Position numbers and translations under genes: made by a program. 35,141 nt of DNA, taken from positions 1 to 35,141 of the IMG/VR virus record IMGVR_UViG_3300025902_000010. One strand, 5' to 3'. This stretch comes from a virus. This document shows positions 6,928-30,599 of the stretch, piece by piece. Numbering within the stretch: the first letter of the stretch is position 1; every line of letters begins with the position of its first letter. Under the pieces are notes generated by a model. That model searched no databases, was not told the DNA's origin, and was given only the letters and a program-made list of their open reading frames with translations.

Positions 6928-6963
6928 GATGTCCTCAATATCTATAAGGCACGAAATAGACGT

Positions 6964-7167: not shown

Positions 7168-7427
7168 TCAGCCTCCGGCGGATTAGGTAATGGCATCCAA
7201 TGAGTGACGTAATCGTCATCGCACATCCAAACGGGCTCTCCGTTTTCTACCCGTAATAGTCTGTCTGTTAGATAATCGCTGTGGTCATCAAATAAAAGCA
7301 CTTCTACGCCAGCTTCCGGCAGTCTCTCGCTCACCGGAATCCATCCCGCCTTGAAATACTCCCCGCACTCCGCGCATTGAACATCCTCAAGCCGTGACGT
7401 GCCACACTTGCAAACGATTTCAGTCAT
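7164..7427 (-). CDS. DUF551-like protein (87 aa)
   Basis: WIPVSERLPE ... VTHWMPLPNPPE, a characteristic DUF551 pattern, plus an N-terminal CxxC..CxxC. Confidence 0.6.
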   Translation of the reverse strand: MTEIVCKCGTSRLEDVQCAECGEYFKAGWIPVSERLPEAGVEVLLFDDHSDYLTDRLLRVENGEPVWMCDDDYVTHWMPLPNPPEAE

Positions 7428-7636
7428 CAGATATAACCTCCGCTAATCAAATCATCCGCGTCCGCCTTGTATTCTTCTATCAGGCGTTCTTTATGCAGTT
7501 TCACAGATTGTCTTACCTGCTCCGCTGAATAATGGCAGTCACGCGCAATACTCTCAAACGACGCGCCCTTGTCATGCAGGTTGCCCCACCCCGCGTCACG
7601 CTGTCTATTCCACCATCCATACGCCTTGTATTTCAT
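7427..7636 (-). CDS. hypothetical protein (69 aa), possible HTH
   Basis: ORF track. TGATG overlap with the downstream gene. Confidence 0.6.
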   Translation of the reverse strand: MKYKAYGWWNRQRDAGWGNLHDKGASFESIARDCHYSAEQVRQSVKLHKERLIEEYKADADDLISGGYI

Positions 7637-7956
7637 TCATCACACCTCCCAAGATAATCACAGATCAGCCTGATGGCCGTGCCGTCCTCGACCATCTCAC
7701 GGTCAAACTGGTAGTACCTGTACCCCATCGCCTGCGCTCCGTTGGCCTTCTCGTAGTCGCGGTGTATTCCGGCGTAACTGGTATGCCCGCGTGACGCAAC
7801 GTGGGTCATGCCATTCACCTCCACAATGAGGCGCGATTCCGGCCAGCAAAAGTCAGCCAACCAGCGGCGGCTACTGTGAAAACGGTACTGCCGTTTCGGT
7901 TCGGGTACGTCGTGAGCGCGGAGTTCAAGCGCCAGCACATCTTCGAGTTCGCTCAT
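7633..7956 (-). CDS. DUF559 / Vsr-like PD-(D/E)XK endonuclease (107 aa from MSELEDV)
   Basis: RRWLADFCWPESRLIVEVNG...H...DYEKAN...GYRYYQF fits the DUF559 endonuclease pattern. I moved the start to the ATG at 7956, which forms an ATGA overlap with the 39-aa ORF upstream. Confidence 0.55.
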   Translation of the reverse strand: MSELEDVLALELRAHDVPEPKRQYRFHSSRRWLADFCWPESRLIVEVNGMTHVASRGHTSYAGIHRDYEKANGAQAMGYRYYQFDREMVEDGTAIRLICDYLGRCDE

Positions 7957-8072
7957 TCTTCCGGCTCCGGTCTGCCAGAGCATTGTTGATTGCCGCGCCA
8001 CCTAAAACACATAATCCCGATTAGAACGACAATCGCTATAATAACGACTGGATCAACCGTTATAGTTATCAT
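7953..8072 (-). CDS. 39-aa single-pass membrane peptide (below the ORF-track length cutoff)
   Basis: Hand translation: MITITVDPVVIIAIVVLIGIMCFRWRGNQQCSGRPEPEE. RBS GGAGAAGGG. ATGA overlaps at both ends (8069-8072 and 7953-7956). Confidence 0.45.
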   Translation of the reverse strand: MITITVDPVVIIAIVVLIGIMCFRWRGNQQCSGRPEPEE

Positions 8073-8425
8073 CCCTTCTCCTTCCACGCCAGCCACGCCT
8101 CACAGATTGCGCGTTGAGGAGTGTCTGATTCTACTTCTACAATTTCGTAAGAGTTTTGAATCCACTCGCAACCCCATTTGTTCAGGGTGGGATAATATTG
8201 CAAATTAACGTCAGCCTCTTTCATCTCCTCCAGCAACTCACCGCATAACCGCCAATCGTGGGTGTAGTCGGGAGGGAAAGAGAAATACCAAAACCGACTA
8301 TCCACATCGGATTTAGTCGGTCTCTGCCACATTGGGACAGCAGGCGGGGGTAAGGCTACCCACCCCTTTGCCTTGAATATCGCCTCGTTCACCTGTTCGT
8401 CAGTCCATCCAGAATAGTCAGTCAT
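8069..8425 (-). CDS. hypothetical protein (118 aa)
   Basis: ORF track. ATGA coupling on both sides. Confidence 0.65.
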   Translation of the reverse strand: MTDYSGWTDEQVNEAIFKAKGWVALPPPAVPMWQRPTKSDVDSRFWYFSFPPDYTHDWRLCGELLEEMKEADVNLQYYPTLNKWGCEWIQNSYEIVEVESDTPQRAICEAWLAWKEKG

Positions 8426-9150
8426 TCCAACTCCTTCATCAGCGCACGGTGTAGGGTGATGGGACAGTCGGGGGCATGGTCAATCTGTTCACCAAATCTC
8501 GCCCAGTGATGACAGCCACCACGACATACCCACTCATGAGGAAATGCCTCAATAACGTAATTAGACGCCAACCTCTCCCCGTCCTCTTTCAGCCTTGCGA
8601 TAATCTCGTCACGGCGGGCTATCTCTTCCCTCGCTGACCTGTCAATGTTGCATAGTTTTTTCTCGGTTAACGCCAGCTCCTCGTCACGGCTGGCGAGTTT
8701 ATGTTTTTGCTCCATACATACCGTGTTAGCGTAATGTAACTCGTTTATTCTGCGGGCGAGTTCGGCTTCTACCGCCTCCACATAATCAATCAATGTCGTT
8801 ACCCCAATTGCGCTAACATCCGCTGGGTATGTTTTGGCAAGCGTGCGAAAATCTTCGTCAAGATACAGTTCGTCTTTATAATAATCAGGATTAGTATTTT
8901 CAACGGATTGCCCTGTTTTAATATCTGTTAAAACATCCTGTGTCATTGAAACATCAGATTTTGCCGGCTGGCGTGACACAATATATCTCGCAAAGTCCTC
9001 ACCGCACTCTTTGCACTCGTACAATTCAAATTCAGCAGTATGAATGCACTCTACGTATTTCTCACAGTTCGGGCAAAAAACGATAGGCATCCTGTGTTCC
9101 ACAATCATTTCAATATGCTGTTTCAGCCGCTTGCGGTCTTCTGGTTTCAT
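8422..9150 (-). CDS. zinc-ribbon / coiled-coil protein (242 aa)
   Basis: CPNC...CKEC N-terminal ribbon, central coiled coil, C-terminal GGCHHW...HAPDC motif shared with the next gene. Confidence 0.65.
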   Translation of the reverse strand: MKPEDRKRLKQHIEMIVEHRMPIVFCPNCEKYVECIHTAEFELYECKECGEDFARYIVSRQPAKSDVSMTQDVLTDIKTGQSVENTNPDYYKDELYLDEDFRTLAKTYPADVSAIGVTTLIDYVEAVEAELARRINELHYANTVCMEQKHKLASRDEELALTEKKLCNIDRSAREEIARRDEIIARLKEDGERLASNYVIEAFPHEWVCRGGCHHWARFGEQIDHAPDCPITLHRALMKELE

Positions 9151-9980
9151 TTATCACTCCTACTTTCCGCTTCATGCGCTCCAAGCTCCTCAATTTCAGC
9201 ATCGGATAAATCACGCTTTACAACTGTGCTGGTATCGTTATCCAAATAAGCGCGGGCAGCGAGATAAAGACAATCTTCCTCGTGTCCATTTTTCGGGGCA
9301 TCCAACGGAAGATACTTGTCATAATCACAGAACCTGCAACCACCTTCGTTATTGAGAAATCGCTGGATTATCTCTCGTGCAATAATATTTTTGGTTAGCG
9401 CCTCAGCCAGTATCTTTCCGCGTAAACCAACTTTTTCGGGATTGTATCCATGCTCTCTAAGATATTGATTTATTTTTTCAATTGGCATGCTATCAAATTC
9501 ATCCTCCTCAAGAGATGGGTCAGCTGGTCTTTGAACTGGTTTTACATCCACGCTGACTTTGCCATCAGCAACAGCACGGTTGTAATTTGTGATGAATTGG
9601 TCAATCCGCGTGAAGGCGTCTGGAGATATTCCGTAAATACCAATCTTCGCATCCTCGTTGCTGTTATAGGTGCAACAGGCGATTACTGCTCCGATTGTCA
9701 CGGTTGCCTGATTGAGCAAATCATCCGTAACATCAAAACGCTCCCGCAACTCCGCCAGCTCTGCAGTCAGACGGGCGAGTTCGGCTTGCAACTTGTCCTC
9801 GATGGGGCGGGTGTTCCAAGTAACTCGCGGGTCTTTGCCGTGCGCGTGAACTTCTGCTCCGCATACCTCGCAATGAGCAAGTTCAGCATCGCGGAGGACA
9901 CTAAAACAGATATGCGGGGCATCGTTGTTTTCATCACCTTTATAATTTCCACAAAACGGACACGCTTTTAGTTCGCTCAT
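9147..9980 (-). CDS. Lar-family-like (restriction alleviation) N-terminal zinc-ribbon domain fused to a coiled coil and an unknown C-terminal domain (277 aa)
   Basis: CPFCG...HCEVCGAEV...VTWNTRP resembles the Lar family pattern (CPFCG..C..CGA....WN.R). I set the start at the ATG at 9980 (RBS GGAGGAGAG; ATGA overlap with the upstream stop) rather than the track start at 10010. Confidence 0.55.
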   Translation of the reverse strand: MSELKACPFCGNYKGDENNDAPHICFSVLRDAELAHCEVCGAEVHAHGKDPRVTWNTRPIEDKLQAELARLTAELAELRERFDVTDDLLNQATVTIGAVIACCTYNSNEDAKIGIYGISPDAFTRIDQFITNYNRAVADGKVSVDVKPVQRPADPSLEEDEFDSMPIEKINQYLREHGYNPEKVGLRGKILAEALTKNIIAREIIQRFLNNEGGCRFCDYDKYLPLDAPKNGHEEDCLYLAARAYLDNDTSTVVKRDLSDAEIEELGAHEAESRSDK

Positions 9981-10159
9981 CTCTCCTCCACGTACATCAT
10001 CCCCCGCCACACGAATACCCGCTCCGGCACGCGGTCATGCCGGCTCGTGTAATGCTCAATCGCCCTGCTCTCATCGGCTTCATCCCGTACCACGTACACC
10101 CGCGCCAACACGGGTCGCTGGTCGCCCTGGTCGTTGGATAGGCGCGTGATGGCGGTCAT
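9977..10159 (-). CDS. hypothetical protein (60 aa)
   Basis: ORF track; overlapping start and stop. Confidence 0.55.
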   Translation of the reverse strand: MTAITRLSNDQGDQRPVLARVYVVRDEADESRAIEHYTSRHDRVPERVFVWRGMMYVEER

Positions 10160-10389
10160 GATTCGCGTTCCTTGTCAAAAAGTTTCTGCAATCGCCATGC
10201 TTTTTGTCGGTAGGATGTTCGGTTACTCACAATCTCAATAATTGTTGCGTCAAGGTTTCCGGCTACAATCGGCTTAACTCCGAGAATTTTTATATATCTG
10301 TCAAGCCAGTTTCTCTTGTAGGTTCTCTTGCAATGGTCAGCAAGTTTTTCCAATTCCTCGTAACTCAAATCAAGCGGTCTCGCTATCAT
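10156..10389 (-). CDS. hypothetical protein (77 aa)
   Basis: ORF track; ATGA overlap at 10386-10389. Confidence 0.6.
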   Translation of the reverse strand: MIARPLDLSYEELEKLADHCKRTYKRNWLDRYIKILGVKPIVAGNLDATIIEIVSNRTSYRQKAWRLQKLFDKERES

Positions 10390-10550
10390 CCCTCTGTCTC
10401 CTTTTTCGGCTTCCGTTTCAACGGCTTCCCGTCACGGTAGTACACGCCAACGGACGGGTTTTTGCTTGCCGGAGCGGTTGCCCGCTCCAGTTTCGCCACG
10501 CGCTTTTCCAGTTTCGTGATGCGCACCACGAGTTCGTCTATTTCAGTCAT
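10386..10550 (-). CDS. small coiled-coil protein (54 aa from MTEIDEL; track start 10601 also possible)
   Basis: The ATG at 10550 lies just upstream of the previous gene's stop (10545-10543, an 8-nt overlap). Basic C-terminus. Confidence 0.5.
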   Translation of the reverse strand: MTEIDELVVRITKLEKRVAKLERATAPASKNPSVGVYYRDGKPLKRKPKKETEG

Positions 10551-10728
10551 CACAATTTTCTTCTGCGGCGTAGTAGGGGTCTTTCCTATTCCACGAAACA
10601 TTAAACTCGATGAATAACCACCCGAAAAGAAATCCCCAAGCCTCGTATTCGACGTACACTCTGAGGTAAGGAAAAATAATCCAGTCGTTGAAGTGAATAT
10701 CCGGTTTCAGACCATATATAGTTTTCAT
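10543..10728 (-). CDS. hypothetical hydrophobic protein (61 aa from MKTIY)
   Basis: AGGAGG lies 7 nt upstream of the ATG at 10728. The longer track ORF (to 10800) would overlap the SSB gene. Confidence 0.5.
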   Translation of the reverse strand: MKTIYGLKPDIHFNDWIIFPYLRVYVEYEAWGFLFGWLFIEFNVSWNRKDPYYAAEENCDD

Positions 10729-10738
10729 CCCCATCCTC

Positions 10739-11086
10739 CTAAAACGGGTATTCCTGATCCGGCGCGTCCACCTTGAACCCGTCACCCTGCACGATCTCAC
10801 GCGCCACCACCTCGAAGCCCGCCGCGTGTTCTGCGCCGTCCTTGTCCGTCCACTTCCTCGGCGTTTTCGCCTGACCCGTGATCGTGACAGTCGCGCCCTT
10901 TTCGAGTGCGGAGTTCGCTTCGGCTAACTGCTCCCACGCTTCACAGCGTACCCATGCCCTCTCTTTGTAGCCCGCTTCCTTGTTACCCCCCGTGTACATC
11001 CCCAGCGAGAAGGTGAGTACCGCTTTTCCTTCCGGCGTGTACCTGGATTCCGGCTTGCCGACAATTCCTGTCAGTTTGATGTTCAT
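10739..11086 (-). CDS. ssb: single-stranded DNA-binding protein (115 aa)
   Basis: OB-fold-like MNIKLTGIVGKPESRYTPEGKAVLTFSL... and an acidic C-terminal tail ending DQEYPF. Start at 11086 (RBS AAGAGGAG; ATGA overlap), not the track start 11158. Confidence 0.85.
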   Translation of the reverse strand: MNIKLTGIVGKPESRYTPEGKAVLTFSLGMYTGGNKEAGYKERAWVRCEAWEQLAEANSALEKGATVTITGQAKTPRKWTDKDGAEHAAGFEVVAREIVQGDGFKVDAPDQEYPF

Positions 11087-11208
11087 AGTCTCCTCTTTAC
11101 ACTCTCGATTACCAGCCCGACCAGCAGCGCCACGATACCGGCTGCCATAACGACACACCCCACAATCCAGATAATCGCGTATAACGTGAAGTCTCCGGTT
11201 AGTTCCAT
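11083..11208 (-). CDS. 41-aa membrane peptide
   Basis: Hand translation: MELTGDFTLYAIIWIVGCVVMAAGIVALLVGLVIESVKRRL. TGATG and ATGA overlaps with neighbours. Confidence 0.45.
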   Translation of the reverse strand: MELTGDFTLYAIIWIVGCVVMAAGIVALLVGLVIESVKRRL

Positions 11209-11384
11209 CACGCCCCGCCTCCGTAGTGTTCGATGTACCTTGCCACCTGCCGCGCGATCTCCGGGCAGCCGTTATCCCGTGCCATGATGTACAGCGCGTC
11301 CCAACTCTCGCCGTCCCATAATCCCGCGTTGAGTTCGCGCATCAAAAGGTCGCGGACTGCGATTACCTCAAATAATGCTGTCAT
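11208..11384 (-). CDS. hypothetical protein (58 aa)
   Basis: Hand translation: MTALFEVIAVRDLLMRELNAGLWDGESWDALYIMARDNGCPEIARQVARYIEHYGGGA. ATGA overlap at 11381-11384. Confidence 0.5.
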   Translation of the reverse strand: MTALFEVIAVRDLLMRELNAGLWDGESWDALYIMARDNGCPEIARQVARYIEHYGGGA

Positions 11385-11929
11385 TTCCCCGCCTCCAGTT
11401 GTTTTGTCAACTTTCCTACCGCTTCCAGGTACTTTGCGCTCACCTGTTTCACGTCAGGTAAAAGCCGGGTGTCTTCCTCAGCCCGGTTCACGAGTGAGTC
11501 GTAAATCTTGAAAAAGTGCGCCCGGTCAACGGCTATGTTTTCCGACTCCAAAAGGTGACGGTAGCCGATCACCTTGACGGCGCGCTCCACAAGGGGATGC
11601 GAGTATTCCGGGACTCGCGCGTTGAACTGGTAGCGGTAGTATTCCCCGCATAAGTTGACCTGCCTCATTGCGTCTTCCCACGCCTCGTATGCCGTAGGGA
11701 TGTTATGCGCCCCGGTCATTAGTTTGTGCGCCATTTCGCGCCATTCCGCGACGGACGGGAAGAATTTACTTTCAGCCATGATCTGATGCGCCGCCGCTTC
11801 CAGAATTTCACCGGGAATATCAGCCAGTAACTTAGCGTAGAGTTTCACCGAGTCAGCCGATAATTCATAGCGCGGGTAGGCGTGCGCCATAACGCCCATA
11901 ATCATTGAAACCGTTTCAGAAGATGCCAC
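11381..11929 (-). CDS. G39P-like replicative-helicase loader (182 aa)
   Basis: Follows the replisome organizer, as in SPP1-type modules. The AHAYPRYELSADSVKLYAKLLADIP...FFPSVAEWRE pattern resembles the G39P family. Confidence 0.5.
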   Translation of the reverse strand: MASSETVSMIMGVMAHAYPRYELSADSVKLYAKLLADIPGEILEAAAHQIMAESKFFPSVAEWREMAHKLMTGAHNIPTAYEAWEDAMRQVNLCGEYYRYQFNARVPEYSHPLVERAVKVIGYRHLLESENIAVDRAHFFKIYDSLVNRAEEDTRLLPDVKQVSAKYLEAVGKLTKQLEAGK

Positions 11930-12662
11930 TTGATACCTCCTCGTTTTTCATTTCAGCCATGGCTTTTAGAATTGCAGCCTTCGACCTGTCAAGCGGTGTC
12001 GCCATGGGCTTTTGTACGCGTTTTGCGATTGCCGTGCGGATTGGCCCGACGAGTGACGAGTAATATTTCACCCGCTTGCCTTGCCCTGAAATCCAGGAAT
12101 AGGCCGCTTGAATATCAGGCAGGGTTGGATTAAGCGCCTCTATTTCGTCAAGCGCTTTGAGGTCGGATGAATTAGCCGGTGGTATTCCTATAACAGATTC
12201 GATCATCTGCTGGGTGAGAGAGGTAGCACCGTTTTTCTCTTTCTCTTCCTCTGTACTCTTACTCTTACTCTTACTCTTACTCTCCGTTACCTTTCGTAAC
12301 GCGTCCGTAACAGGTTCGTAACCGGAATAATCTTTTTTATGTTGCGCCTCCCTGTATTTGCGTTGCTTTTCGTCACTCGGTATTGCCGCTTGGCGCTCTT
12401 CAAATTTACGGATCACGAGACCGGTTGTGTTATCGGTGATGAAGTTGATAGCCTTGAGTTCGTCAATAACCGGCTGCCACCATGACACAGTCCGGCGGGT
12501 GTAAAACTCAATATCGTCCACGCTCGGTAAATGTCCGTCCTGCCCGACCTTCTTCGCTACCATCATCAACTCATACATTCCGAGTTTCGCGTTATCGCTG
12601 AGCCGGTAGTATTTCGGATCGTCTAAAATCTCTGTGTAGAGTTTCAGCCAATAGCCGGCCAT
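11916..12662 (-). CDS. phage replisome organizer (DnaD-like N-terminal domain) (248 aa)
   Basis: N-terminus YWLKLYTEILDDPKYYRLSDNAKLGMYELMMVAKKVGQDGHL is typical of the replisome-organizer N-domain. Central (SK)n linker. Confidence 0.6.
   Translation of the reverse strand: MAGYWLKLYTEILDDPKYYRLSDNAKLGMYELMMVAKKVGQDGHLPSVDDIEFYTRRTVSWWQPVIDELKAINFITDNTTGLVIRKFEERQAAIPSDEKQRKYREAQHKKDYSGYEPVTDALRKVTESKSKSKSKSTEEEKEKNGATSLTQQMIESVIGIPPANSSDLKALDEIEALNPTLPDIQAAYSWISGQGKRVKYYSSLVGPIRTAIAKRVQKPMATPLDRSKAAILKAMAEMKNEEVSSGIF
12255..12283. repeat. hexanucleotide microsatellite (ACTCTT x4.8) encoding SKSKSKSKS
   Basis: Seen directly: actcttactcttactcttactcttactct. Confidence 0.9.
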
Positions 12663-13058
12663 CTACAACAACCTCCCCTGTCCCGGTAACGGGTTCAGCA
12701 CGTCCGAGCCGTAGAGTTTGTTGATCTTCGACTTGTACGCGTGTACCTTCTGCAGCGTACTCATGGCCTGCGATTCTTCCTGCGCCGCGAAATGGACGTG
12801 TTTCTCAATGTCCTCCTGGTCGCTCCCGTTCATGAACAGCCCGCCGTCCTCGCGGTCCGAGCAGATCACCACGCCGTTGGAGGGATCCCCGTTGATTGCG
12901 CTTATCACCGCACGGAGTTTGCGCCGGTTATTGTCGGTCGGCTTGCCGTACATCATGGTCGTCAGCTCGTCGTAACTGATCCGGTTGGCTGAACCAACGT
13001 GGCGGAGCATGACAGTATTCACGGTGGTGAGAATGTGCTGGTCGATTTCAATTTTCAT
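12663..13058 (-). CDS. hypothetical protein (131 aa)
   Basis: ORF track; contiguous with neighbours. Confidence 0.65.
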   Translation of the reverse strand: MKIEIDQHILTTVNTVMLRHVGSANRISYDELTTMMYGKPTDNNRRKLRAVISAINGDPSNGVVICSDREDGGLFMNGSDQEDIEKHVHFAAQEESQAMSTLQKVHAYKSKINKLYGSDVLNPLPGQGRLL

Positions 13059-13285
13059 TCGTCCTCCATATCCGCGCCGATATTTTCCTCAAGCCAAAGT
13101 GCATAATCACCGTTCTCTTTGACTTCCTCCAGGCACTCGTCACATATCCACTCGTACCCGCCCTCGTTGTGGTTCAAGTCGCCGCCGTCAAACACGTCAC
13201 CGCACTTGTCACACTCCCAGTGTGTCGGTTCGTCCGGCGGGTCAAGGTATCTGTCATTTCGTGGGTTGTAATCAAGCCAGTTCAT
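13055..13285 (-). CDS. acidic zinc-ribbon protein (76 aa)
   Basis: CDKCG...CDEC; strongly acidic composition. Confidence 0.6.
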   Translation of the reverse strand: MNWLDYNPRNDRYLDPPDEPTHWECDKCGDVFDGGDLNHNEGGYEWICDECLEEVKENGDYALWLEENIGADMEDE

Positions 13286-13500
13286 TGTCCGGCCTCCTGC
13301 AAAACGTCAGCGTATTTGTCAACGTGGCCACACGGGTTGGTCCAGGTATTCACCGAATACCACTCGCCATCTTCGCAAAACCGCTTGTCAACAGGTTCGC
13401 CACGAGGACCACCACACACCGGACATTTGTCAGATATTCGGATTGCGCGTGGTCCTATTGGCCATCCTTCACGAGTTCGTTCCATCACGATTACGTCCAT
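13282..13500 (-). CDS. small zinc-binding protein (72 aa from MDVIVME)
   Basis: The ATG at 13500 is preceded by a purine-rich RBS (GGAGGGGAAGGGAGAG). The track start at 13563 is a GTG. CPVCGG...C...CGH. Confidence 0.55.
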   Translation of the reverse strand: MDVIVMERTREGWPIGPRAIRISDKCPVCGGPRGEPVDKRFCEDGEWYSVNTWTNPCGHVDKYADVLQEAGQ

Positions 13501-13584
13501 CTCTGCTCTCCCTTCCCCTCCCGTCCCGGTCGTGTTTCCCCCGCGTTGTTGAGGCGCGTTCACCGGGCGCTTGGAGGAGTCGTG

Positions 13585-14226
13585 TTACCCGCCGTTGCGA
13601 GCGGATAGAATTGTTTGTGCTGCAGTCAGTTTGCGCTCCTGCTCATCCGTGCGCTTCGGCATTTTCGCCAGCGCGTTTGCCATGTTCGAGAGTGTCTCGG
13701 TATCAATGTCGCCGTATTTCACGCCGTCCCGGTTCGTCTCGGCAAGCGCAAACTCAAGCGTCATTTTTCCATTGGCCTTCTGCGGTTCCGGTTTCGCCTG
13801 ATAAGGTTTTTCCGGCCGTTCGTGGTTCTTCGCCGGCGCGTTGCCGTCTGTGTCCTCGTCCGTTGCCAGTCCCACGATCGCTCCGAAGGAATAGCGACGG
13901 AGATAGGTTATAATTGACCCTGCAACCTGTGCCAAAGATTTTCCCTTTTCGTCGCCGAGCGGGAGTGAGATCGTGTCCTCGATCCATTGCCCGCTCGTGT
14001 GTAACAACGTGGTGGTAACTCCGATCTGACCGTCTACGCTCACCGGCTGTTGGCTGATGCTCAGGCCGTGTTTGGCGAGCACCGGTGACGCTACCCGGAT
14101 CATCTCCGCCAGGTCAGCGTACTTGTTTTTCAGGAAGGGATTGACCGCGTTCATCGGTACTGCGGGCATTTCAGCCTGTGCCTGTGCTAATGCTGCTGCT
14201 AACTTGTCTAACTGTTCTGACTTCAT
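13585..14226 (-). CDS. erf: ERF-family single-strand annealing protein (213 aa)
   Basis: NPFLKNKYADLAEMIRVASPVLAKHGLSISQ ... ITYLRRYSFGAIVGL are ERF superfamily hallmarks. Confidence 0.8.
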   Translation of the reverse strand: MKSEQLDKLAAALAQAQAEMPAVPMNAVNPFLKNKYADLAEMIRVASPVLAKHGLSISQQPVSVDGQIGVTTTLLHTSGQWIEDTISLPLGDEKGKSLAQVAGSIITYLRRYSFGAIVGLATDEDTDGNAPAKNHERPEKPYQAKPEPQKANGKMTLEFALAETNRDGVKYGDIDTETLSNMANALAKMPKRTDEQERKLTAAQTILSARNGG

Positions 14227-14492
14227 TTCATCTCCTCTCTAATCAGTCTGTATTCCTCTTCGATCAAGCGGTACAAATCCAACTGCCTGGATTCGGTCTG
14301 GATGGCAAGTTTCTCAAGTTCATCTAGCGCGGTCTCGTCGTTTGAGTAGATCGCTGCCTTGTACTCATTCCAGATTTCGTCAGCCCGACGCGCGATCTCG
14401 TTGTATTCCCGTGTCAATTCGTGAACGCGCCAGGTGCGGCGGCTGGTAGGCCGTAAACAAAACGCAGGCGGATAAGTCATGATCTCTGTCAT
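14223..14492 (-). CDS. hypothetical early protein (89 aa)
   Basis: ORF track; ATGA overlaps. Confidence 0.6.
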   Translation of the reverse strand: MTEIMTYPPAFCLRPTSRRTWRVHELTREYNEIARRADEIWNEYKAAIYSNDETALDELEKLAIQTESRQLDLYRLIEEEYRLIREEMK

Positions 14493-14662
14493 GATTCCAC
14501 CTGCTTTACCGGCTCAAACTTCACGCCCTCGTAGACTTCAGCAGTCAGCGCGTCAGCCAATGACTTGTACAGGATCACGCTGCGTTTCTTGCCGTCCCGC
14601 GAGTAAATCCGATACCCACCTTCTTCTTCGTGGATTTCAGGGAACTTGCTTATCTCTGCCAT
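14489..14662 (-). CDS. hypothetical early protein (57 aa)
   Basis: Hand translation: MAEISKFPEIHEEEGGYRIYSRDGKKRSVILYKSLADALTAEVYEGVKFEPVKQVES. ATGA overlap at 14489-14492. Confidence 0.5.
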   Translation of the reverse strand: MAEISKFPEIHEEEGGYRIYSRDGKKRSVILYKSLADALTAEVYEGVKFEPVKQVES

Positions 14663-14739
14663 CGTGCCCCCCTTGTGCCGAGTAGATATCCGGCTGAAAA
14701 AACCAGTACGATGAAAATTGCAAGTCCAGTGTTTATCAT
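14650..14739 (-). CDS. 29-aa membrane peptide, first ORF after the early promoter
   Basis: Hand translation: MINTGLAIFIVLVFSAGYLLGTRGARWQR. RBS GAGAGGAG 7 nt upstream. Confidence 0.4.
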   Translation of the reverse strand: MINTGLAIFIVLVFSAGYLLGTRGARWQR

Positions 14740-14776
14740 TGCGTCTCCTCTCTGTTATGTTTTTATTTCTAATATC

Positions 14777-14804
14777 AGTATAACAAGTGGTTTCAAAAAG
14801 TCAA
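14777..14804 (-). promoter_or_regulatory. sigma70-type early promoter (-35 TTGACT, 16-nt spacer, -10 TATACT)
   Basis: Minus strand reads TTGACTttttgaaaccacttgtTATACT, about 35 nt upstream of the first early RBS. Confidence 0.5.
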
Positions 14805-14836
14805 TAGGCAATATTTACAAATATGCAAAGTCTAAA

Positions 14837-14880
14837 ATAGCATATAGTAAACCGTGAAAACAGGTTGTGTAATATGCTAT
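14837..14880. repeat. 9-bp inverted repeat ATAGCATAT / ATATGCTAT with 26-nt spacer (inner AACC..GGTT pairing); a third ATATGC half-site at 14821-14826
   Basis: Seen directly in the AT-rich region just upstream of the early promoter. Confidence 0.6.
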
Positions 14881-14893
14881 GCAGTATGTTTTT

Positions 14894-14924
14894 ATGGCTA
14901 TAAATCATGGCTATGACATGCCAT
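14894..14924. repeat. direct repeats ATGGCTAT (14894, 14907; 13-bp period) plus ATGCCAT (14918)
   Basis: Seen directly. Confidence 0.55.
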
Positions 14925-14966
14925 ACTTGTTAATTATGGTTGGTTATACCAAATATGATGTTAAAT

Positions 14967-15005
14967 AGCGCTAATGCGCTCATGTTTGAATAAGGGGCGA
15001 CCCTT
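14967..15005 (-). terminator. two short GC hairpins (AGCGC-TAAT-GCGCT at 14967-14980; AAGGG-GCGA-CCCTT at 14992-15005); possible weak terminators between the noncoding block and the early promoter
   Basis: Seen directly. On the minus strand the first-named hairpin is followed by an A/T-rich tract (ATTTAACATCATATTT). The stems are only 5 bp. Confidence 0.3.
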
Positions 15006-15029
15006 GACTAAAAATAATCAGAAGTAATT

Positions 15030-15048
15030 TATAGTTTTGTAAACTATA
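15030..15048. promoter_or_regulatory. 19-bp palindrome TATAGTTT-TGT-AAACTATA (operator-like), overlapping a plus-strand TATAAT hexamer (15045-15050)
   Basis: Perfect 8+8 bp inverted repeat, seen directly. Confidence 0.5.
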
Positions 15049-15123
15049 ATCGACAAATATCGTTCATTGATCTATACAATCGACCATAATCGAATCACCT
15101 AACGGATAAGTAATATCACCTAA
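15047..15123. repeat. iteron-like direct repeats: AATCGA(C/A) at 15048, 15078 and 15088; ATCACCTAA at 15094 and 15115 (21-bp period)
   Basis: Seen directly. Confidence 0.5.
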
Positions 15124-15134
15124 ACTCATGGTAA

Positions 15135-15158
15135 TAACTTATCAACAACGATAAGTTA
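15135..15158 (-). other. AT-rich 9-bp hairpin TAACTTATC-AACAAC-GATAAGTTA at the 3' (minus-strand) end of the structured block
   Basis: Perfect inverted repeat, seen directly. Confidence 0.4.
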
Positions 15159-15181
15159 AATGTCACAATAATTCCTACCTT

Positions 15182-25211: not shown

Positions 25212-25733
25212 GTTTCCTCAATTCGAGTACCTGTTTTGCTACCTGCCAGGCGTCGCTCTTGAAAAACGACGCGTCTTGTTTCGGGTCTCTCGTGATGTAC
25301 GCCTTCCACGCGTTGTACACGTTCACGGCGATTGTCATGCGCTCCACAAGTCCGGCGGGCTGGTCGAGTAACCCGCCGGAATGTGGCAGCGTTCCCCATT
25401 GCTGGCAGCGAAAAGCGAGGCGTAATTCATCCGGCGGCGACCCCTTGCCATCGGCATAGTCCGCCACCGCCAAAATCAGTTTTTTGGGTCAAATTGAAAA
25501 ACCTCTTTGATGTACTCTTGGATAGACCGGTTGATTTCGAGGATGTCGTGAGGCTTGGCATTGTCCACGTCAAACTCCAACCATCCCACCTCAACGGCAG
25601 CCCTGACAATAGCACCTGCTGATTCCACGATCCCGATGCTCTCATCATTCCCACCTAACCGGCGAAAAGACTTGTAAAACTTCTCCAATTGACCCTGCGT
25701 GATACTGTCAAAATCAATAGCTGGTAATTTCAT
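25204..25733 (-). CDS. tail assembly chaperone GT-like fusion product via -1 programmed frameshift
   Basis: The -1 frame after A_AAA_AAC reads KKLILAVADYADGKG..., continuous with ORF 25204..25473. Confidence 0.65.
25476..25733 (-). CDS. tail assembly chaperone (G-like, 85 aa from MKLPAIDF)
   Basis: Located between the major tail gene and the tape measure. RBS AAGGTGG. Ends just after an A_AAA_AAC slippery heptamer. Confidence 0.75.
   Translation of the reverse strand: MKLPAIDFDSITQGQLEKFYKSFRRLGGNDESIGIVESAGAIVRAAVEVGWLEFDVDNAKPHDILEINRSIQEYIKEVFQFDPKN
25479..25485 (-). promoter_or_regulatory. -1 ribosomal frameshift slippery heptamer A_AAA_AAC
   Basis: Minus strand ...GAC CCA AAA AAC TGA. 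I checked the frame arithmetic by hand. Confidence 0.7.
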
Positions 25734-26712
25734 TGACCACCTTGATCTCCGCGAACTTGGCGGCGGTAGCGTCATACCCGGCGCGGAATGTACCGGTCAC
25801 AATGTCATTCCCGTTCATGTCCCCGATGGAGTCAAAACTTTCCCACTTGCCCGCCAGGTCAACGATCAGCGTCTTGTAGGTGAAAGTCCCTGCGGTGGTA
25901 AGCGCGTTGCCCTCGAACTTCAGCCGTAACAGGCGAGCGGTCTTGGCTTTCCATGCGTCCTTCTCCGCTACGGCTGTGGCGTTGTGTTCAAACGTGACAT
26001 TCAAAAGAACTTCCGGCTTTGTTGACTGCGCCCATGAAAAGTACAATTGTCCATCAGCCGCGTATTTTGCGATCCATCCGGTGTTAACTGACAACGACAT
26101 ACCGAGAAGGGTGTTCGATTTCTCGGTGCTGCCGATCGTCCCGCCAACCTCGTCGATGTAGAGTTTGCCTTTTCCGAACAGGATTTCTTCAACGGTCGCC
26201 GGGGTTGTCACGGGGGTGGTGAAGGTGCATTTACTTACCTGCCGCCCCTTCCAGTTGGCCGACATTTGCAGCGCTTCACCGCCGTTGCCGGAAAGCTCAA
26301 ACGACTCTACAAATGCGTATTCGACTTCTTCAGCCTGCTGGTCGTCACCCGCTTCGATCGTCCATGTTTTGATCGAGTTCGCGCTTGTCGTCGGGAACGT
26401 GTAGGTGTACACCTTACCGCTTCCGCCCGTGTCAGTCACGCCGGTCACGACGTTCTTCACGCCAGCGCACAGGATGATCGGTAATCCCTCGAATGTAGCA
26501 GGTGTGGCATCGAACACGACGCCCGCCTCAACTTTCGGGATGTAGTTCCTGTCCTTGCCTGAAATGTAGCCGATGTCCTCGTCCGGGAAGATGACTTCCC
26601 GCTGATCCTCAATACTGCCTGTACCATGCCAGATGGTATCGGCAGCCACCGCCGTTCCGGCAGTCGTTTCCAGCCCTAACAACACTTTTCTTAACGCCTT
26701 AATTCCCATCAT
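25714..26712 (-). CDS. major tail (tube) protein (332 aa)
   Basis: Synteny: directly upstream of the chaperone pair and tape measure. Strong RBS GAGGTGA. Confidence 0.65.
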   Translation of the reverse strand: MMGIKALRKVLLGLETTAGTAVAADTIWHGTGSIEDQREVIFPDEDIGYISGKDRNYIPKVEAGVVFDATPATFEGLPIILCAGVKNVVTGVTDTGGSGKVYTYTFPTTSANSIKTWTIEAGDDQQAEEVEYAFVESFELSGNGGEALQMSANWKGRQVSKCTFTTPVTTPATVEEILFGKGKLYIDEVGGTIGSTEKSNTLLGMSLSVNTGWIAKYAADGQLYFSWAQSTKPEVLLNVTFEHNATAVAEKDAWKAKTARLLRLKFEGNALTTAGTFTYKTLIVDLAGKWESFDSIGDMNGNDIVTGTFRAGYDATAAKFAEIKVVNEITSY

Positions 26713-26866
26713 TCACCTCGCTTTGAATGTCGATCTTTTTGTCTTTTTCTTTGATGTACAACCCTGATTCCAGGAGTTGCTTGATGCCGTAAAACTTCGC
26801 TTCTTCATCGGTCAGGTCACGCGCCGGCACGCCGTGAATCCAACCGTCACCGATATACTTATACAT
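26699..26866 (-). CDS. hypothetical protein (55 aa)
   Basis: Hand translation: MYKYIGDGWIHGVPARDLTDEEAKFYGIKQLLESGLYIKEKDKKIDIQSEVNDGN. RBS GGGAGGTGG. Overlaps both neighbours. Confidence 0.5.
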   Translation of the reverse strand: MYKYIGDGWIHGVPARDLTDEEAKFYGIKQLLESGLYIKEKDKKIDIQSEVNDGN

Positions 26867-27542
26867 TTGCCACCTCCCTGTATTTCATCCTTGCGTGATT
26901 CGACTCCCACAATGAGCGCAACGGTTCACGATGCTCCACGCTGTTTTGTCGTTTCAGGTACGAACCGAGCGCCTCTCTGACGTGGTAAAACTTCACACCC
27001 TTGCTTGCCAGTCGCATCCAAAATTCATAATCGCCAGCGCTCTTGTAGGTTTCATCGAAGTAACCGAACTGCTTATGCAACCTCACCCTCCACATCGGCA
27101 TCGGACCTAAAAAACAGGCTTTGATAAGTTTGTCCAGCCCGCCCTCTTTCCACCTGTACTCACCAATAGGATTACCGCCGATTTCCTCAACGATGGAAAC
27201 GTCCGGGTAAACCACGCCGTAAGTCGTTTCCTTGTCCAAAATGTCAGCCATTTTCTTTAGCGCGTGCGGTGCGAGGCGGTCATCACAATTCGCGTTCGTG
27301 ACATACGGGGTGTTACTTGCCTTGATGCCGATGTTCCATGCCTCATACACGCCCGGAATGTCGTTAGTCTGGATAATCTCAACCTGTGGGAAACGCGCAC
27401 AAATACCGGCTTCAACGCTTCCCTTTTGCGCTACCGCGATAATGTCAACCTTCTCGGTCTGATTGACAAGGTTTTCTATCCTACCCTGAATGTAATCCTC
27501 TGCGAAATACGCGCTGATGATTGCCGTCACTCTACCAGTCAT
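26859..27542 (-). CDS. family-2 (GT-A) glycosyltransferase (227 aa from MTGRVTAI)
   Basis: VTAIISAYFAEDYIQGRIENLVNQT...IIAV... with a DxD-like NCDD; typical GT2 N-terminal half. Start at 27542 (the track start 27617 would overlap the upstream gene by 86 nt). Confidence 0.7.
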   Translation of the reverse strand: MTGRVTAIISAYFAEDYIQGRIENLVNQTEKVDIIAVAQKGSVEAGICARFPQVEIIQTNDIPGVYEAWNIGIKASNTPYVTNANCDDRLAPHALKKMADILDKETTYGVVYPDVSIVEEIGGNPIGEYRWKEGGLDKLIKACFLGPMPMWRVRLHKQFGYFDETYKSAGDYEFWMRLASKGVKFYHVREALGSYLKRQNSVEHREPLRSLWESNHARMKYREVANV

Positions 27543-28209
27543 TGATGTTTCCCTTTTCGAGTACCTGTTCTTTCGTTCCAGGCGTGAGGTTGATAATCCT
27601 GCGCCCGTGAACTTCATACATCGCCCTTGCCAGTTTGTAGGCGTGTTCGCTCCGTACTAAATCCGGATTATTCCAATGCTTACCCTTGAAGTAATCCGGG
27701 TGGAAGTGGTTCGGGTCGTTGCCGTCCAGCACCATCTCTTGATTCGGCGCTCCGTGATACTGGAATGAATGATCGACGCCAACGAGTAACACGTTCTTGA
27801 ACCCCATGTAATACGCGATCTGCATACATACGAAAGTAACGGTATGCCCCTCGTGAATCCATTGGCTCGCGTCCTGCGAAAACACAACAACGCCGGATGA
27901 GTTCAACGGCAGGCAGGTATCATCGAAACAGTAAGATGCTGGTAAAAACTTCGGCGCGTCTATCCTGGCAATGTCCTCGCTGAACTGCTGAATCACCAAC
28001 GGGTTCACCGAGCAGTAGTAGGTTGGTGTAAACCCGTCCATGAGGTATATCCGGTTCGTGCCAAACGACGGGTATTTTTTCAGGAAGTCAAGCGGTACAT
28101 CCCGCAAGGATGGTCCGTTGCCGATAATCAAACAGGTTTCGCCTTCGTGAATGTCCCTGTAATATCGCCATGAGCCGGGTGCTTGTGTGTTCGCTGTAAT
28201 ATCAGACAT
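27532..28209 (-). CDS. DUF115 (Maf/MptE-like) / GT42 sialyltransferase-like glycosyltransferase (225 aa)
   Basis: CLIIGNGPSLRDV..., FGTNRIY and GHTVTFVCMQIAYYMGFKNVLLVGVDHSF parallel the GNGPSL ... G(I/V)D motifs of Cst-type sialyltransferases and Maf flagellin nonulosonic-acid transferases. Confidence 0.55.
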   Translation of the reverse strand: MSDITANTQAPGSWRYYRDIHEGETCLIIGNGPSLRDVPLDFLKKYPSFGTNRIYLMDGFTPTYYCSVNPLVIQQFSEDIARIDAPKFLPASYCFDDTCLPLNSSGVVVFSQDASQWIHEGHTVTFVCMQIAYYMGFKNVLLVGVDHSFQYHGAPNQEMVLDGNDPNHFHPDYFKGKHWNNPDLVRSEHAYKLARAMYEVHGRRIINLTPGTKEQVLEKGNINDW

Positions 28210-28846
28210 GCGCTAATGCCCTCTTGTATCTCTGGAATGAACCGCAATCGAAGTACCAGGCGAGTGAGTACGTCCCCCAGCCGAGTTGCTCCATTGCCAT
28301 ATTGAACGCTTGCGTGTAATCCCTAATTTCAGGCAAGTATTTCTTCCATAACTCGACGCATTCCCTTGACCATACCAGCGTTCCCCATGCGGTTTGTGGA
28401 GGTGCTAGTGATGCGCTCTTGTCAACGATTTCGCCGTTCAATAACACGCCGTAATTCTGCGGGTCAAATGTCTCGAATAATCCGAGCATAAACTGGTGGT
28501 CTGGTAATTCCGGGAATCTACCTTGCTCCTGCATTGTGTCAGGCATGATGAAGTAATACCAATCCGCGTCGATGCTCAATGTCGATGCTATCGCGCCCCA
28601 AATGTCGGGCTTGTCCATCTGCGTTACAAACTCGACGTTCCTGCCCTGCAAGGCTACGGAGTGCGCCGCGATCTTCTGCGGGTTCGTGACAATGATTGTC
28701 GTATCAACCGGTATCATTTCGAGTGTGTCAACCGCGCGTGAGAGCAGCGTCATCGACTCGCCAACGGGTAACAATTCCTTGAACACGCCACCGAATCGCT
28801 TTGCCGCGCCAGCCGCCGGGATGATTCCGACTCTATTCGATGCCAT
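28202..28846 (-). CDS. sugar-phosphate nucleotidyltransferase (214 aa)
   Basis: N-terminal GIIPAAGAAKRFGGVFKELLPV matches the (I/V)IPAAGxGxR...K..LP signature of GalU/RmlA/IspD-type nucleotidyltransferases. Confidence 0.65.
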   Translation of the reverse strand: MASNRVGIIPAAGAAKRFGGVFKELLPVGESMTLLSRAVDTLEMIPVDTTIIVTNPQKIAAHSVALQGRNVEFVTQMDKPDIWGAIASTLSIDADWYYFIMPDTMQEQGRFPELPDHQFMLGLFETFDPQNYGVLLNGEIVDKSASLAPPQTAWGTLVWSRECVELWKKYLPEIRDYTQAFNMAMEQLGWGTYSLAWYFDCGSFQRYKRALAHV

Positions 28847-29459
28847 GTTTCTCCTTGAGGTAGTTCATCAAACTATTAAGCAGTTCCGCTTTTTTCTCTT
28901 TGAAGTCAGCCCGCGCCTGCTCTTTGTCCATGTAAAGATGCTCAATTCCCCACTCGTCACGATCAAACTCTATCAGGGGTATTCCCTCTTTAGCGGCTCT
29001 TATGCAGTAATCAATGTCCTCGAAATACATCGGGGTAAACGCTTCGTCAAACTTGCCTATTTTATGCCACACCTCACGGCTGATTAACATGCACCAACTG
29101 GAAAGATAATCAGGTTTCGATTTCAGCAGTTCGTGGCCTGTCCATTTTTTGAATCCATAGAGCGTGGACGTGGCAAGCGATTCAACCATTTTTGTAAAGG
29201 CTTTATGCACCCTCACGTCGTTGTTCATTACAACGTACCAATCTGAATTCCCTGCCCGGTCAATACCCCAATTCAACGCTTCTGCATAACCAAGTCTCTT
29301 GTCAGTCCTGTGGATATGCTCACCTTTCGGGTAGGGAGTAGCACTTGCGTTATCCACAACAACGATGTTTGCATCCGGCTCGTGAGTCCAAATATCCGCT
29401 ATCAACGGGCGCGTGTAGCGTTCCCAGTCGTCAATGCCAACGATAATCACACTAATCAT
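28833..29459 (-). CDS. family-2 (GT-A) glycosyltransferase (208 aa from MISVIIVG)
   Basis: ISVIIVG...IVVVDNAS...GYAEALNWGI...VVMNNDV is a GT2 signature. RBS GGAGG 7 nt before the ATG at 29459. Confidence 0.7.
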   Translation of the reverse strand: MISVIIVGIDDWERYTRPLIADIWTHEPDANIVVVDNASATPYPKGEHIHRTDKRLGYAEALNWGIDRAGNSDWYVVMNNDVRVHKAFTKMVESLATSTLYGFKKWTGHELLKSKPDYLSSWCMLISREVWHKIGKFDEAFTPMYFEDIDYCIRAAKEGIPLIEFDRDEWGIEHLYMDKEQARADFKEKKAELLNSLMNYLKEKHGIE

Positions 29460-30165
29460 CCCGCGCCTCCATGAGGTCTTGATTGTTCGCCGTCCACTTT
29501 TGCCACGTCGCGCCGTCAATAATCGCCGGGGTGATATGAGGACTTGTCACGGTAACATCTACCCACATCTTGATACCGTGCTGTACACACAGTTTGTTGA
29601 ATCCAATGTCTTCACCAGGCCAAGCGTCGCGCCATGATTGCGAGTAATCATTCCAGAACCAGGGCGGCGGGATTGTCTCAAACACTTCGCGTGCTATGAG
29701 TATCGACCCTGTACCTAACCGGTCAACCTCTACGATTTCATCGTCTTTTTCCCATGCGATTGTGTACATCGAGCCGTCCGCGCTGATCTTGTACGCGCAC
29801 GGGTCATAAGGTTCTGACCGCCTGAAATTCAATCCGCCCACGACTTGATACTTCTTCGGGTCTTTCAAAACCCATTTTGCCAAACGCTGAATAATATCGT
29901 GCGGGTGAACGTGGTCAATGTCGAGCATGAGGAGATGCGTGAAGTCTGATTTCAGCAACTCCATGCTTGCCCGGTTGCGTGCTAAATCCGTGCGCTGGTA
30001 GGGCATGTTCAAAACCACCGGACCCTGCGCCGCGATCTGCATACACGCCGGGAATACGAGGTCGGCGTAACTGATTGTTCGCTCCAGGAGGAACGCGACG
30101 AGGATGCGCGGGAACGCCCAACTCATAATCGGGTACTGCTCCAAAACACTTTTCTTCTCGACCAA
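29452..30165 (-). CDS. GT-A-like glycosyltransferase (237 aa), TTG start
   Basis: HLLMLDIDHV (DxD-like), GTGSILIAREVF, and WPGEDIGFNKLC. AGGAG lies 6 nt before the TTG at 30165. Confidence 0.5.
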   Translation of the reverse strand: MVEKKSVLEQYPIMSWAFPRILVAFLLERTISYADLVFPACMQIAAQGPVVLNMPYQRTDLARNRASMELLKSDFTHLLMLDIDHVHPHDIIQRLAKWVLKDPKKYQVVGGLNFRRSEPYDPCAYKISADGSMYTIAWEKDDEIVEVDRLGTGSILIAREVFETIPPPWFWNDYSQSWRDAWPGEDIGFNKLCVQHGIKMWVDVTVTSPHITPAIIDGATWQKWTANNQDLMEARDD

Positions 30166-30173
30166 TTTGTCTC

Positions 30174-30599
30174 CTATATCGCGGACTGAATCTTTATGTC
30201 TCGCACGGTGTACCTGAATCCCACCGTGTCAATTCCGGCGTAGTTCATAGCGATCAAGCCGGTACTCGTGATGCTTCCAAAAGTCGATACCGTGTTATTC
30301 AGTTTCGTGTCGTAGAGGTCGTCAAAGAGTTTCAACGGAATGTCATCGTATAACGCCACGATTCGCTTGTGCGCCTGCGGTAGGGTGTTACGGGGCGTGT
30401 GGATTTCAACGATTACCGAGTACATAGCCGTCATGTAACCGGAAGGCAATCCGGGGATAAATTCAGTCTCGCCGGGGTACATCACGACCCAGTTTTCCAC
30501 AGTCGGAAGGGCTTCTGGTAGATATTGATCCGCGCCCTTGATGCCGGATATGGCTTCAATGTCTGTCTGCATTCGTGCGATTGCGTCTTGGATTGCCAT
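30174..30599 (-). CDS. head-tail joining protein (tail-terminator or head-closure candidate) (141 aa)
   Basis: Called from synteny only; follows the connector gene with a TAATG overlap. Confidence 0.4.
   Translation of the reverse strand: MAIQDAIARMQTDIEAISGIKGADQYLPEALPTVENWVVMYPGETEFIPGLPSGYMTAMYSVIVEIHTPRNTLPQAHKRIVALYDDIPLKLFDDLYDTKLNNTVSTFGSITSTGLIAMNYAGIDTVGFRYTVRDIKIQSAI

Follow-up and report, generated by a model that had tools for sequence, protein, structure and literature searches.

A modular cassette of sugar enzymes in the structural operon of an uncultured tailed phage: a candidate virion glycosylation system

The virus sequence IMGVR_UViG_3300025902_000010 from IMG/VR (35,141 nucleotides, the whole of which is called the window here) carries nearly all of its genes on the minus strand, among them five consecutive open reading frames, A to E (26859-30165), that encode sugar enzymes and are bounded upstream by head-tail adaptor and neck genes and downstream by the tail-tube side. 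On balance we lean towards the reading that this cassette glycosylates the phage's own virion proteins. That reading is favoured by the identities of the enzymes, their coupling to structural genes, the lack of any transmembrane segment and the fixed position of the cassette in relatives, and further by the recurrence of A, D and E in structural regions, the capsid-adjacent family to which A belongs, the precedent of the mycobacteriophages, the methyltransferases found alongside and the fusion of D with E in cellular enzymes. The principle of virion glycosylation is known; what would be new here is the uncultured lineage, an enzyme of the Maf/CstII fold, an optional nucleotidyltransferase and a modular architecture in which alleles are swapped.

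Five coupled sugar-enzyme genes

As the initial annotation had proposed, the five overlapping genes lie between the head-tail joining genes and the major tail gene, and all five encode sugar enzymes. Of the seven junctions between the neck gene g30174 and the tail-tube gene, six are overlaps of 8-14 nt: by 8 nt at A/B, C/D and E/g26699, by 11 nt at D/E, and by 14 nt at B/C and between g26699 and the tail-tube gene. The seventh junction, from g30174 to A, is a gap of 8 nt that contains AGGAG, and A may begin either at a TTG (30165, with AGGAG 5 nt upstream) or at an ATG (30126). The cassette shows no separate promoter or terminator signal, with 12 promoter-like sites against 9.0±3.3 in shuffles and 16 terminator-like sites against 12.9±3.9, and its GC content is uniform with that of the adjoining genes. 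The overlaps support the close coupling of the cassette with the structural genes that was noted at the outset. None of A-E has a hydrophobic segment of transmembrane level (maximum KD19 1.36), and all five proteins are predicted to be soluble. Independent gene calls in public assemblies, on contigs with an identical D, agree with these genes, with products of 237, 208, 214, 225 and 227 aa, followed by genes of 55 and 331 aa.

D scores 47.2 bits against PF01973 (MptE-like/DUF115; cut-off 34.6), carries the motifs IIGNGPSL and VGVDH, and has more than 1,000 detectable homologues; among the matches listed, all 120 of 120 carry PF01973. Its invariant residues are G30, N31, G32, S34 and L35, then N52, and G144, D146 and H147. 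The AlphaFold model, built on 39 homologues, has a predicted local distance difference test score (pLDDT) of 93.5, and Foldseek matches it to the Maf of Magnetospirillum (5mu5; E 2e-6, template modelling (TM) scores TMq 0.58 and TMt 0.23) and to CstII (1ro8; E 3e-5, TM 0.50/0.46), with eukaryotic sialyltransferases matching more weakly; sequence identity to the Maf and CstII enzymes is 13-14%. Over the GNGPSL...N motif, Cst-I can be aligned with the profile of the family, and weak NCBIfam matches point to the 3-deoxy-D-manno-octulosonate (Kdo) transferase WaaZ and to PseD. No match was returned by phmmer against PDB sequences or by tblastn against 50,697 GenBank phage records; uncharacterised proteins of the DUF115 fold exist in BFVD, from uncultured Caudovirales and a giant virus, and a literature search on DUF115 in phages gave nothing relevant. 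The enzyme identities first assigned, including that of a Maf/Cst-like D, are borne out by Pfam, PHROG and Foldseek. We rejected D as a bona fide Maf, which would comprise several domains and some 600 aa, with flagellin as acceptor and a flagellar glycosylation island as context: since D is a 225-aa single domain whose relatives lie in polysaccharide clusters, it is Maf-like in fold yet not a Maf.

Foldseek, run on AlphaFold models of A and D, gave glycosyltransferase folds for both. A has no Pfam match, and matches phrog_1574 and phrog_12406 (glycosyltransferase); its model (pLDDT 90.9) has a GT-A fold, and the best Foldseek match is the viral glycosyltransferase A197 of Sulfolobus turreted icosahedral virus (STIV; E 3e-9, TMt 0.71), followed by COLGALT1 (collagen galactosyltransferase), LH3, mimivirus R699 and ppGalNAc-T2. 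Going by the predicted structure, several of these nearest folds are protein-directed glycosyltransferases, and A is a candidate for the priming, protein-directed transferase. The motifs LDIDH (DxD-like) and GEDxGF are invariant in its family of about 300 detectable homologues. In sequenced phages its relatives occur in Cluster J mycobacteriophages and in the podovirus-like genome MW202711, in both next to capsid genes, and identity to the gp11-type glycosyltransferases of Cluster J is about 22% (Thibault gp11, over 90% of the length of A). The analogy with mycobacteriophages drawn in the initial annotation is supported, A being a distant homologue of these enzymes of the capsid-connector block.

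The remaining three enzymes are a nucleotidyltransferase and two transferases of the GT2 type. E is well within its family (PF00535, 44.7 bits against a cut-off of 23.3). B narrowly misses the GT2 thresholds of Pfam (23.0 against 23.3 for PF00535; 24.9 against 27), matches PHROG glycosyl- and galactosyltransferase families at 1e-9, has a weak NCBIfam match to a rhamnosyltransferase and is partly similar to glycosyltransferases of a Gordonia phage and of Che9c. C reaches 43.1 bits against PF12804 (NTP_transf_3; cut-off 27), bears the signature GIIPAAGAAKRFGG..KELLP and belongs to a tiny family, with 21 homologues found, in which P10, A12, G13, R17, G19, G20 and K23 are invariant. Since its family profile best matches hexose-1-phosphate thymidylyl- and uridylyltransferases in the PDB (glucose-1-phosphate thymidylyltransferase 3hl3, RmlA, E 2.7e-6 over 167 residues; GalU, 3.4e-5), C is an activating enzyme of the nucleoside diphosphate (NDP)-hexose type. 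A CMP-ulosonate synthetase (CMP, cytidine monophosphate) of the KdsB/NeuA/PseF kind was considered for C and rejected, as there is no PF02348 match at E ≤ 0.1 and the nearest enzymes act on hexose-1-phosphates.

The genes that flank the cassette are listed with it in Table 1. The synteny of adaptor and neck genes with the cassette is kept in L001-L013 (related loci are given by such numbers), and the tail-tube gene lies ahead of a chaperone pair, which is followed by the tape measure. Translational coupling links the 55-aa protein with E on one side and with the tail-tube gene on the other; this protein is encoded upstream of the tail-tube gene even in relatives without any A, D or E, and so goes with the tail-tube gene and not with the cassette.

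Table 1. Genes of the cassette and of the adjoining structural region (positions in the window)
Feature	Position	Strand	Assignment	Basis
A	29452-30165	-	GT-A-fold glycosyltransferase of a virus-restricted family	PHROG, predicted fold
B	28833-29459	-	GT2-like glycosyltransferase in an optional, allele-swapping slot	PHROG and near-cut-off Pfam
C	28202-28846	-	RmlA/GalU-type sugar-1-phosphate nucleotidyltransferase	PF12804 and PDB profile matches
D	27532-28209	-	225-aa single-domain DUF115/MptE-like transferase, Maf/CstII fold	PF01973 and model
E	26859-27542	-	GT2 glycosyltransferase, functional partner of D	PF00535
Head-tail adaptor	30599-31195	-	Head-tail adaptor	g30599 matches Phage_connect_1 and phrog_442 (head-tail adaptor)
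Neck protein (g30174)	30174-30599	-	141-aa neck protein; with the adaptor, upstream boundary of the cassette (30174-31195)	
g26699	26699-26866	-	Conserved 55-aa protein	Overlaps of 8 nt with E and of 14 nt with the tail-tube gene
Major tail (tube) protein	25714-26712	-	Tail tube, 332 aa	Position and homologue match to PF18906 (Phage_tube_2)
Major capsid protein	31917-33623	-	HK97 fold	PF05065, E 1e-41, residues 296-565

Relatives among phages and in cellular genomes

The cassette occupies the same place, between neck and tail tube, in 15 IMG/VR contigs, and so recurrent an arrangement is not chance. More distant phages keep A, D and E only (L014, L015, L016, L017, L117, L118, L127, L178 and L179), and these three genes form a conserved core that diverse phages, all uncultured, carry in their late or structural regions, lying ahead of the tail tube in L016, L117, L127 and L178 and behind the capsid gene in L017 and L179. 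E is always directly downstream of D in phages. B and C travel as a pair (L143) and are absent from many relatives that keep A-D-E, making them an optional add-on to the core. The B slot of L001, L003, L004, L012 and L013 holds an allele only 41-46% identical to that of the window (at about 1989-2582 in L001), while identity to the window at A, C, D and E is 82-98% in L001, L003 and L004 and 65-82% in L012 and L013; the alternative alleles of relatives score 35 bits, above the GT2 cut-off. The swap is an allelic replacement of a single transferase of the sort known from O-antigen loci. Further tailoring genes in the cassette region of relatives encode FkbM and Methyltransf_24 methyltransferases and an additional GT2.

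Among loci with a homologous tail tube and more than 6 kb of upstream sequence (n=39), A is present in 13, D in 10 and E in 8; the cassette is accessory, since this tail-tube family occurs both with and without it. Neither a megablast search with the 9-kb region against the 50,697 GenBank phages nor a tblastn search with the tail-tube protein against GenBank phages gave a match.

Three of the related loci have further features of their own. In L161, which has a homologous tail tube, a sulfatase-family gene (6665-7981; PF00884, E 3e-27) lies between capsid and neck genes, a further enzyme linked to carbohydrates within a structural region. In L104 (6588-9185) a gene for an FkbM methyltransferase and two PF01555 genes of the N6_N4 DNA-methylase type are interspersed among those of the cassette. 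L016, an 89-kb contig of ERZ21831104, carries at 7600-19500 a holin, a neck-like gene, A-D-E, a 66-aa gene, the tail tube, tape measure, distal tail genes and a GH25 lysin; this tail block stands directly behind replication genes, and the 10 kb upstream of it contain neither a capsid nor a portal nor a terminase gene. L016 could represent a prophage that has been rearranged, or else an element that has tail genes only.

D and E are of cellular origin. Searched with the profile of D, 185,579 species genomes yielded 210 relatives, and neighbourhoods were taken from the best 80 of these 210. The relatives are mostly from Chloroflexota (Anaerolineae), the nearest being in a Chloroflexota metagenome-assembled genome (MAG), with others from cyanobacteria, Bacteroidota, Planctomycetota, Actinomycetota including Mycobacterium, Nitrospirota and proteobacteria. 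We considered whether the genomic matches could be prophages that would reveal the host, and rejected this, as a tblastn comparison with every protein of the window left nearly all of the best 80 loci without neighbouring phage genes; for the same reason these loci are regarded as cellular glycan clusters, which are informative on the donor and not on the host. A stands beside D in only one of the 80, a 3-kb MAG contig (L019). The cellular relatives of D are 41-52% identical to it and lie in cell-surface glycan clusters: a Pfam scan of 107 neighbour genes from 17 such loci found 23 GT2, 12 epimerases, 11 short-chain dehydrogenases/reductases (SDR), 11 2-hydroxyacid dehydrogenases, 9 PF02348 cytidylyltransferases (within about 5 kb) and 8 FkbM methyltransferases, and the loci also hold Wzy, WecG/TagA, PMT_2, acyltransferase-3 and ABC transporter genes.

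A particular gene order recurs among these loci, namely a cytidylyltransferase (CTP_transf_3, PF02348), a D-2-hydroxyacid dehydrogenase (2-Hacid_dh), an SDR and then the DUF115 transferase corresponding to D. It is seen for example in L047 (7556-10615), also in L025, L028, L033, L036, L038 and L069, and partially in L034, L059 and L071, and it spans Actinomycetota, cyanobacteria, Bacteroidota and Chloroflexota. The module probably represents an uncharacterised pathway for a CMP-activated sugar with its own transferase. In four genomes D-like and E-like domains are moreover fused in one frame, in proteins of 961-1660 aa (L020, 7916-12730; L023, 9929-12970; L054, 8243-13222; L062, 170-3052) from Planctomycetota, Chloroflexia, Anaerolineales and Deltaproteobacteria MAGs. 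As these domains are fused in cellular enzymes, we infer that D and E act on the same glycan.

The cytidylyltransferase of the cellular module and the donors used by Maf, CstII and Kdo transferases together point, by analogy, to an acidic sugar, CMP-activated and provided by the host, as the probable donor of D. The initial annotation had described the cassette as a self-contained kit that activates a sugar and then builds a glycan. That description fails, because C is RmlA/GalU-like and does not resemble an activator of the donor of D; a PF02348 cytidylyltransferase is not found in the phage, and B and C are in any case optional.

Acceptors and competing explanations

We propose that the cassette, expressed late and acting in the cytoplasm, would build a short O-linked glycan on the tail tube, the capsid or both, before or during assembly. 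A would attach the first sugar to Ser or Thr of a virion protein, and the D-E pair, captured from host pathways for cell-surface glycans, would extend it, E adding a hexose-type sugar from an NDP donor and D a CMP-activated acidic (ulosonic-type) sugar drawn from the host pool. Where B and C are present they may add one more sugar, C making the NDP-hexose locally and B transferring it.

The tail-tube protein is one candidate acceptor. Position 272 (ALTTAGT) is Ser or Thr in 82% of its cassette-bearing and 28% of its cassette-free homologues, across several lineages and with phylogeny uncontrolled, a weak signal that may serve as a lead only; T93 and T95 also stood out in this comparison, which is confounded by relatedness. 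Tail-tube proteins with and without the cassette show no difference in length or in overall Ser/Thr content (0.175 against 0.166). The capsid protein is an alternative candidate and equally possible, since glycosylation genes directly follow the capsid gene in L017, L179 and L119. The Thr/Ser-rich 141-aa protein after the capsid gene, initially put forward as a plausible acceptor, has to be given up as an obligate one, because it is absent from L008, L010/L101, L012 and L102, close relatives that keep the full cassette. A literature search on O-linked glycans of phage tail tubes returned nothing relevant.

Several observations weigh against virion proteins as the target. The phage encodes none of the three donor-synthesis genes of the cellular module (cytidylyltransferase, 2-hydroxyacid dehydrogenase and SDR), so that the donor of D would have to come from the host. 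The closest cellular relatives of D probably work on lipid-linked glycans and not on proteins as acceptors. In L177, A-D-E stands next to the terminase and not to a capsid or tail gene, and the tail-tube family exists with the cassette and also without it. No acceptor-specific or C-terminal extension and no Ser/Thr-rich tail separates the cassette-bearing tail-tube homologues from the others.

A wider proposal can be made, though we regard it as tentative and rather doubtful: that A-D-E marks a widespread, unrecognised system of virion O-glycosylation in uncultured tailed phages of several bacterial phyla. A would prime Ser or Thr of the tail tube or capsid, the captured DUF115/GT2 pair would complete the glycan with an acidic sugar of the sialic or Kdo kind, made by the host and activated with CMP, and optional modules, that is B-C, methyltransferases and alleles of B, would diversify it in the manner of O-antigen loci. 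Phage particles outside Actinobacteria would on this proposal be 'sialylated-like'.

Because D and E descend from enzymes of envelope glycans, a serious alternative, if on the whole an unlikely one, is that the cassette remodels a glycan of the host cell envelope during infection, be it O-antigen-like, of the surface layer, a cell-wall polysaccharide or a lipid-linked precursor. This could block superinfection, keep progeny from being trapped on debris or divert host sugar pools. The 41-52% identity of D is to enzymes in surface-glycan clusters (with Wzy, WecG/TagA, GT2, PMT_2, FkbM and acyltransferase genes), clusters of this kind are the native setting of the D-E pair, which is even fused there, E is distantly related to GT2s in the lipopolysaccharide (LPS)-like gene islands of cyanomyoviruses, and peripheral glycosyltransferases that act on lipid-linked acceptors likewise lack transmembrane helices. 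However, the cassette is without flippase, GtrA-like, Wzx/Wzy or polyprenyl-phosphate transferase genes, and it is translationally coupled to neck and tail-tube genes instead of standing as a moron under a promoter and terminator of its own. A is virus-restricted and missing beside nearly all of the best 80 genomic D loci, L019 being the exception, and the trio is found repeatedly in the structural regions of unrelated phages. Genes for lysogeny were not found, and the lack of any integrase or lysogeny module in the window argues against lysogenic conversion.

Less likely still, in our judgement, is a target other than a virion surface glycan, such as a scaffold or assembly factor, a host protein, a small molecule or the receptor-binding protein only. 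It would fit with the variable position of the cassette, which includes a place ahead of the terminase in L177, and with the tail-tube homologues that have no cassette; but adjacency to capsid or tail-tube genes is the recurrent pattern, and the precedent in mycobacteriophages, as given in PMC11600133 and PMC12363180, concerns capsid and tail-tube subunits. That the transferases hypermodify phage DNA with sugars against restriction is very improbable: phage glycosyltransferases can glycosylate DNA (Pyle et al. 2024, as cited in PMC12619734), the L104 cassette is interleaved with two N6_N4 DNA methylase genes and the window encodes a Mom-family DNA-modification protein, but hydroxymethylase, thymidylate-synthase-like and other base-hypermodification genes were not seen among the annotated open reading frames, the genes lie in the structural operon and not in a replication module, and the relatives of D are glycan-building enzymes that use CMP-sugar donors.

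Other parts of the window are described here for completeness. The capsid protein has 568 aa, with an N-terminal extension of about 295 aa outside the Phage_capsid domain; a separate protease or scaffold gene was not recognised in the window, and in an unusual arrangement a Neck1/tail-completion-like gene (33626-34054, minus strand; phrog_5, HK97 gp10-like) stands upstream of the capsid gene. The Mom-family protein (5398-6051, minus strand; PF25680, E 1e-41) is encoded just upstream of the terminase genes and adjoins a gene for a protein with a ParB-like nuclease domain (6029-6541). A tandem repeat of 69 bp (23 aa) runs off both ends of the window (1-140 and 34989-35141); when the ends are joined, the minus strand encodes an N-terminal domain of about 190 aa and then repeats of the KHALTSKAIT... 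type, with a frame shift at the naive junction. The genome is probably circular or permuted, and the break that gave the contig its ends probably fell within the repeat gene, whose copy number of repeats is uncertain.

Two 123-aa proteins (1783-2154 and 19656-20027, both minus strand) appear to be paralogues: both align, at 42-43% identity, with one and the same part of L122. The gene of one lies behind the portal gene and that of the other between the lysin and tail-fibre genes, and g1783 has a weak match to a PHROG 'virion structural protein'. A sulfotransferase-like gene had been suggested at 779-1363, for which we found a single sub-threshold match (PF13469, E 0.004, 17.8 bits against 27) and an N-terminal, P-loop-like RSGSS motif, and no match in NCBIfam, PHROG or PDB sequences; the suggestion is a weak one. 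In L010 the segment corresponding to 779-2154 and the repeat gene are missing between the portal gene and the Mu-F-like gene.

Significance and comparison with known systems

If the cassette does act on virion proteins, the range of virion glycosylation would widen to include phages from the environment that belong with other phyla, where its role would not be antibody-related and might instead lie in particle stability, in adhesion or in evasion of host surface traps and defences. It would add a Maf/CstII-fold enzyme class, probably dependent on CMP-sugars and not seen in cultured phages. A-D-E could then serve as a three-gene marker for glycosylated phages in metagenomes. The cellular module of cytidylyltransferase, 2-hydroxyacid dehydrogenase, SDR and DUF115 transferase for its part flags what is probably an uncharacterised activated-sugar pathway.

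To our knowledge, experimental proof of phage virion glycosylation is so far limited to some mycobacteriophages. The modification shields their particles from antibodies. As in the window, mycobacteriophages (Che8, Corndog and Myrna, and the cassettes of Cluster O and Cluster J, for example Thibault gp11-gp19) carry GT-A and GT2 genes in or next to the structural operon; in Thibault the block between capsid and connector genes holds a glycosyltransferase, a kinase, a methyltransferase and then four more glycosyltransferases, and O-methyltransferases are also found in the cassettes of relatives of the window phage. The window phage differs in belonging to an unrelated, uncultured lineage, whose host is probably not actinobacterial and, judging from the nearest homologue of D, probably of the Chloroflexota type. 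Its cassette adds the DUF115/Maf-CstII-fold enzyme and the RmlA-like nucleotidyltransferase, and the acceptor segment is C-terminal in the mycobacteriophages, whereas no C-terminal extension was detected for the window phage. In mycobacteriophages the phages' own glycosyltransferases modify capsid and tail-tube subunits (Freeman et al. 2023, as reported in PMC11600133, PMC12363180 and PMC12619734).

With Maf and the GT42 enzyme CstII, D shares PF01973, the GNGPSL...N and G-x-D motifs and the closest predicted fold. Maf enzymes O-glycosylate Ser and Thr of a self-assembling filament protein in the cytoplasm by means of CMP-sugars, and can transfer pseudaminic acid (Pse), legionaminic acid (Leg), N-acetylneuraminic acid (Neu5Ac) and Kdo (PMC11339370; bioRxiv 10.1101/2020.06.03.131540), which makes the glycosylation of a filament a close functional analogy to that of a phage tail tube. 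The Maf 5mu5 has 632 aa with extra domains, whereas D is the catalytic core only, has no flagellin context and has its nearest cellular relatives in polysaccharide and not in flagellar clusters.

The cellular CTP_transf_3/2-Hacid_dh/SDR/DUF115 module resembles the phage system in the 41-52% identity of D and in an E-like GT2 that is adjacent to or fused with its transferase; it differs in that the phage keeps only D and E, adds the virus-specific A and places the genes in the structural operon. We know of no characterisation of this module. Serotype conversion by gtrABC and O-antigen acetylases likewise involves phage enzymes of the GT2 type that act on glycans, but its features, namely membrane association, expression from a prophage, a location near attP/int and a flippase, are all absent from the window cassette.

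Other viruses offer a parallel in concept. A197 of STIV shares the viral GT-A fold with A, though its host is archaeal and its virion unrelated, and its acceptor is likewise unproven. Chlorovirus PBCV-1, with a eukaryotic host and likewise an unrelated virion, glycosylates its capsid by virus-encoded enzymes. What these viruses would have in common with the window phage is that the virus brings its own cytoplasmic glycosyltransferases for its structural proteins.

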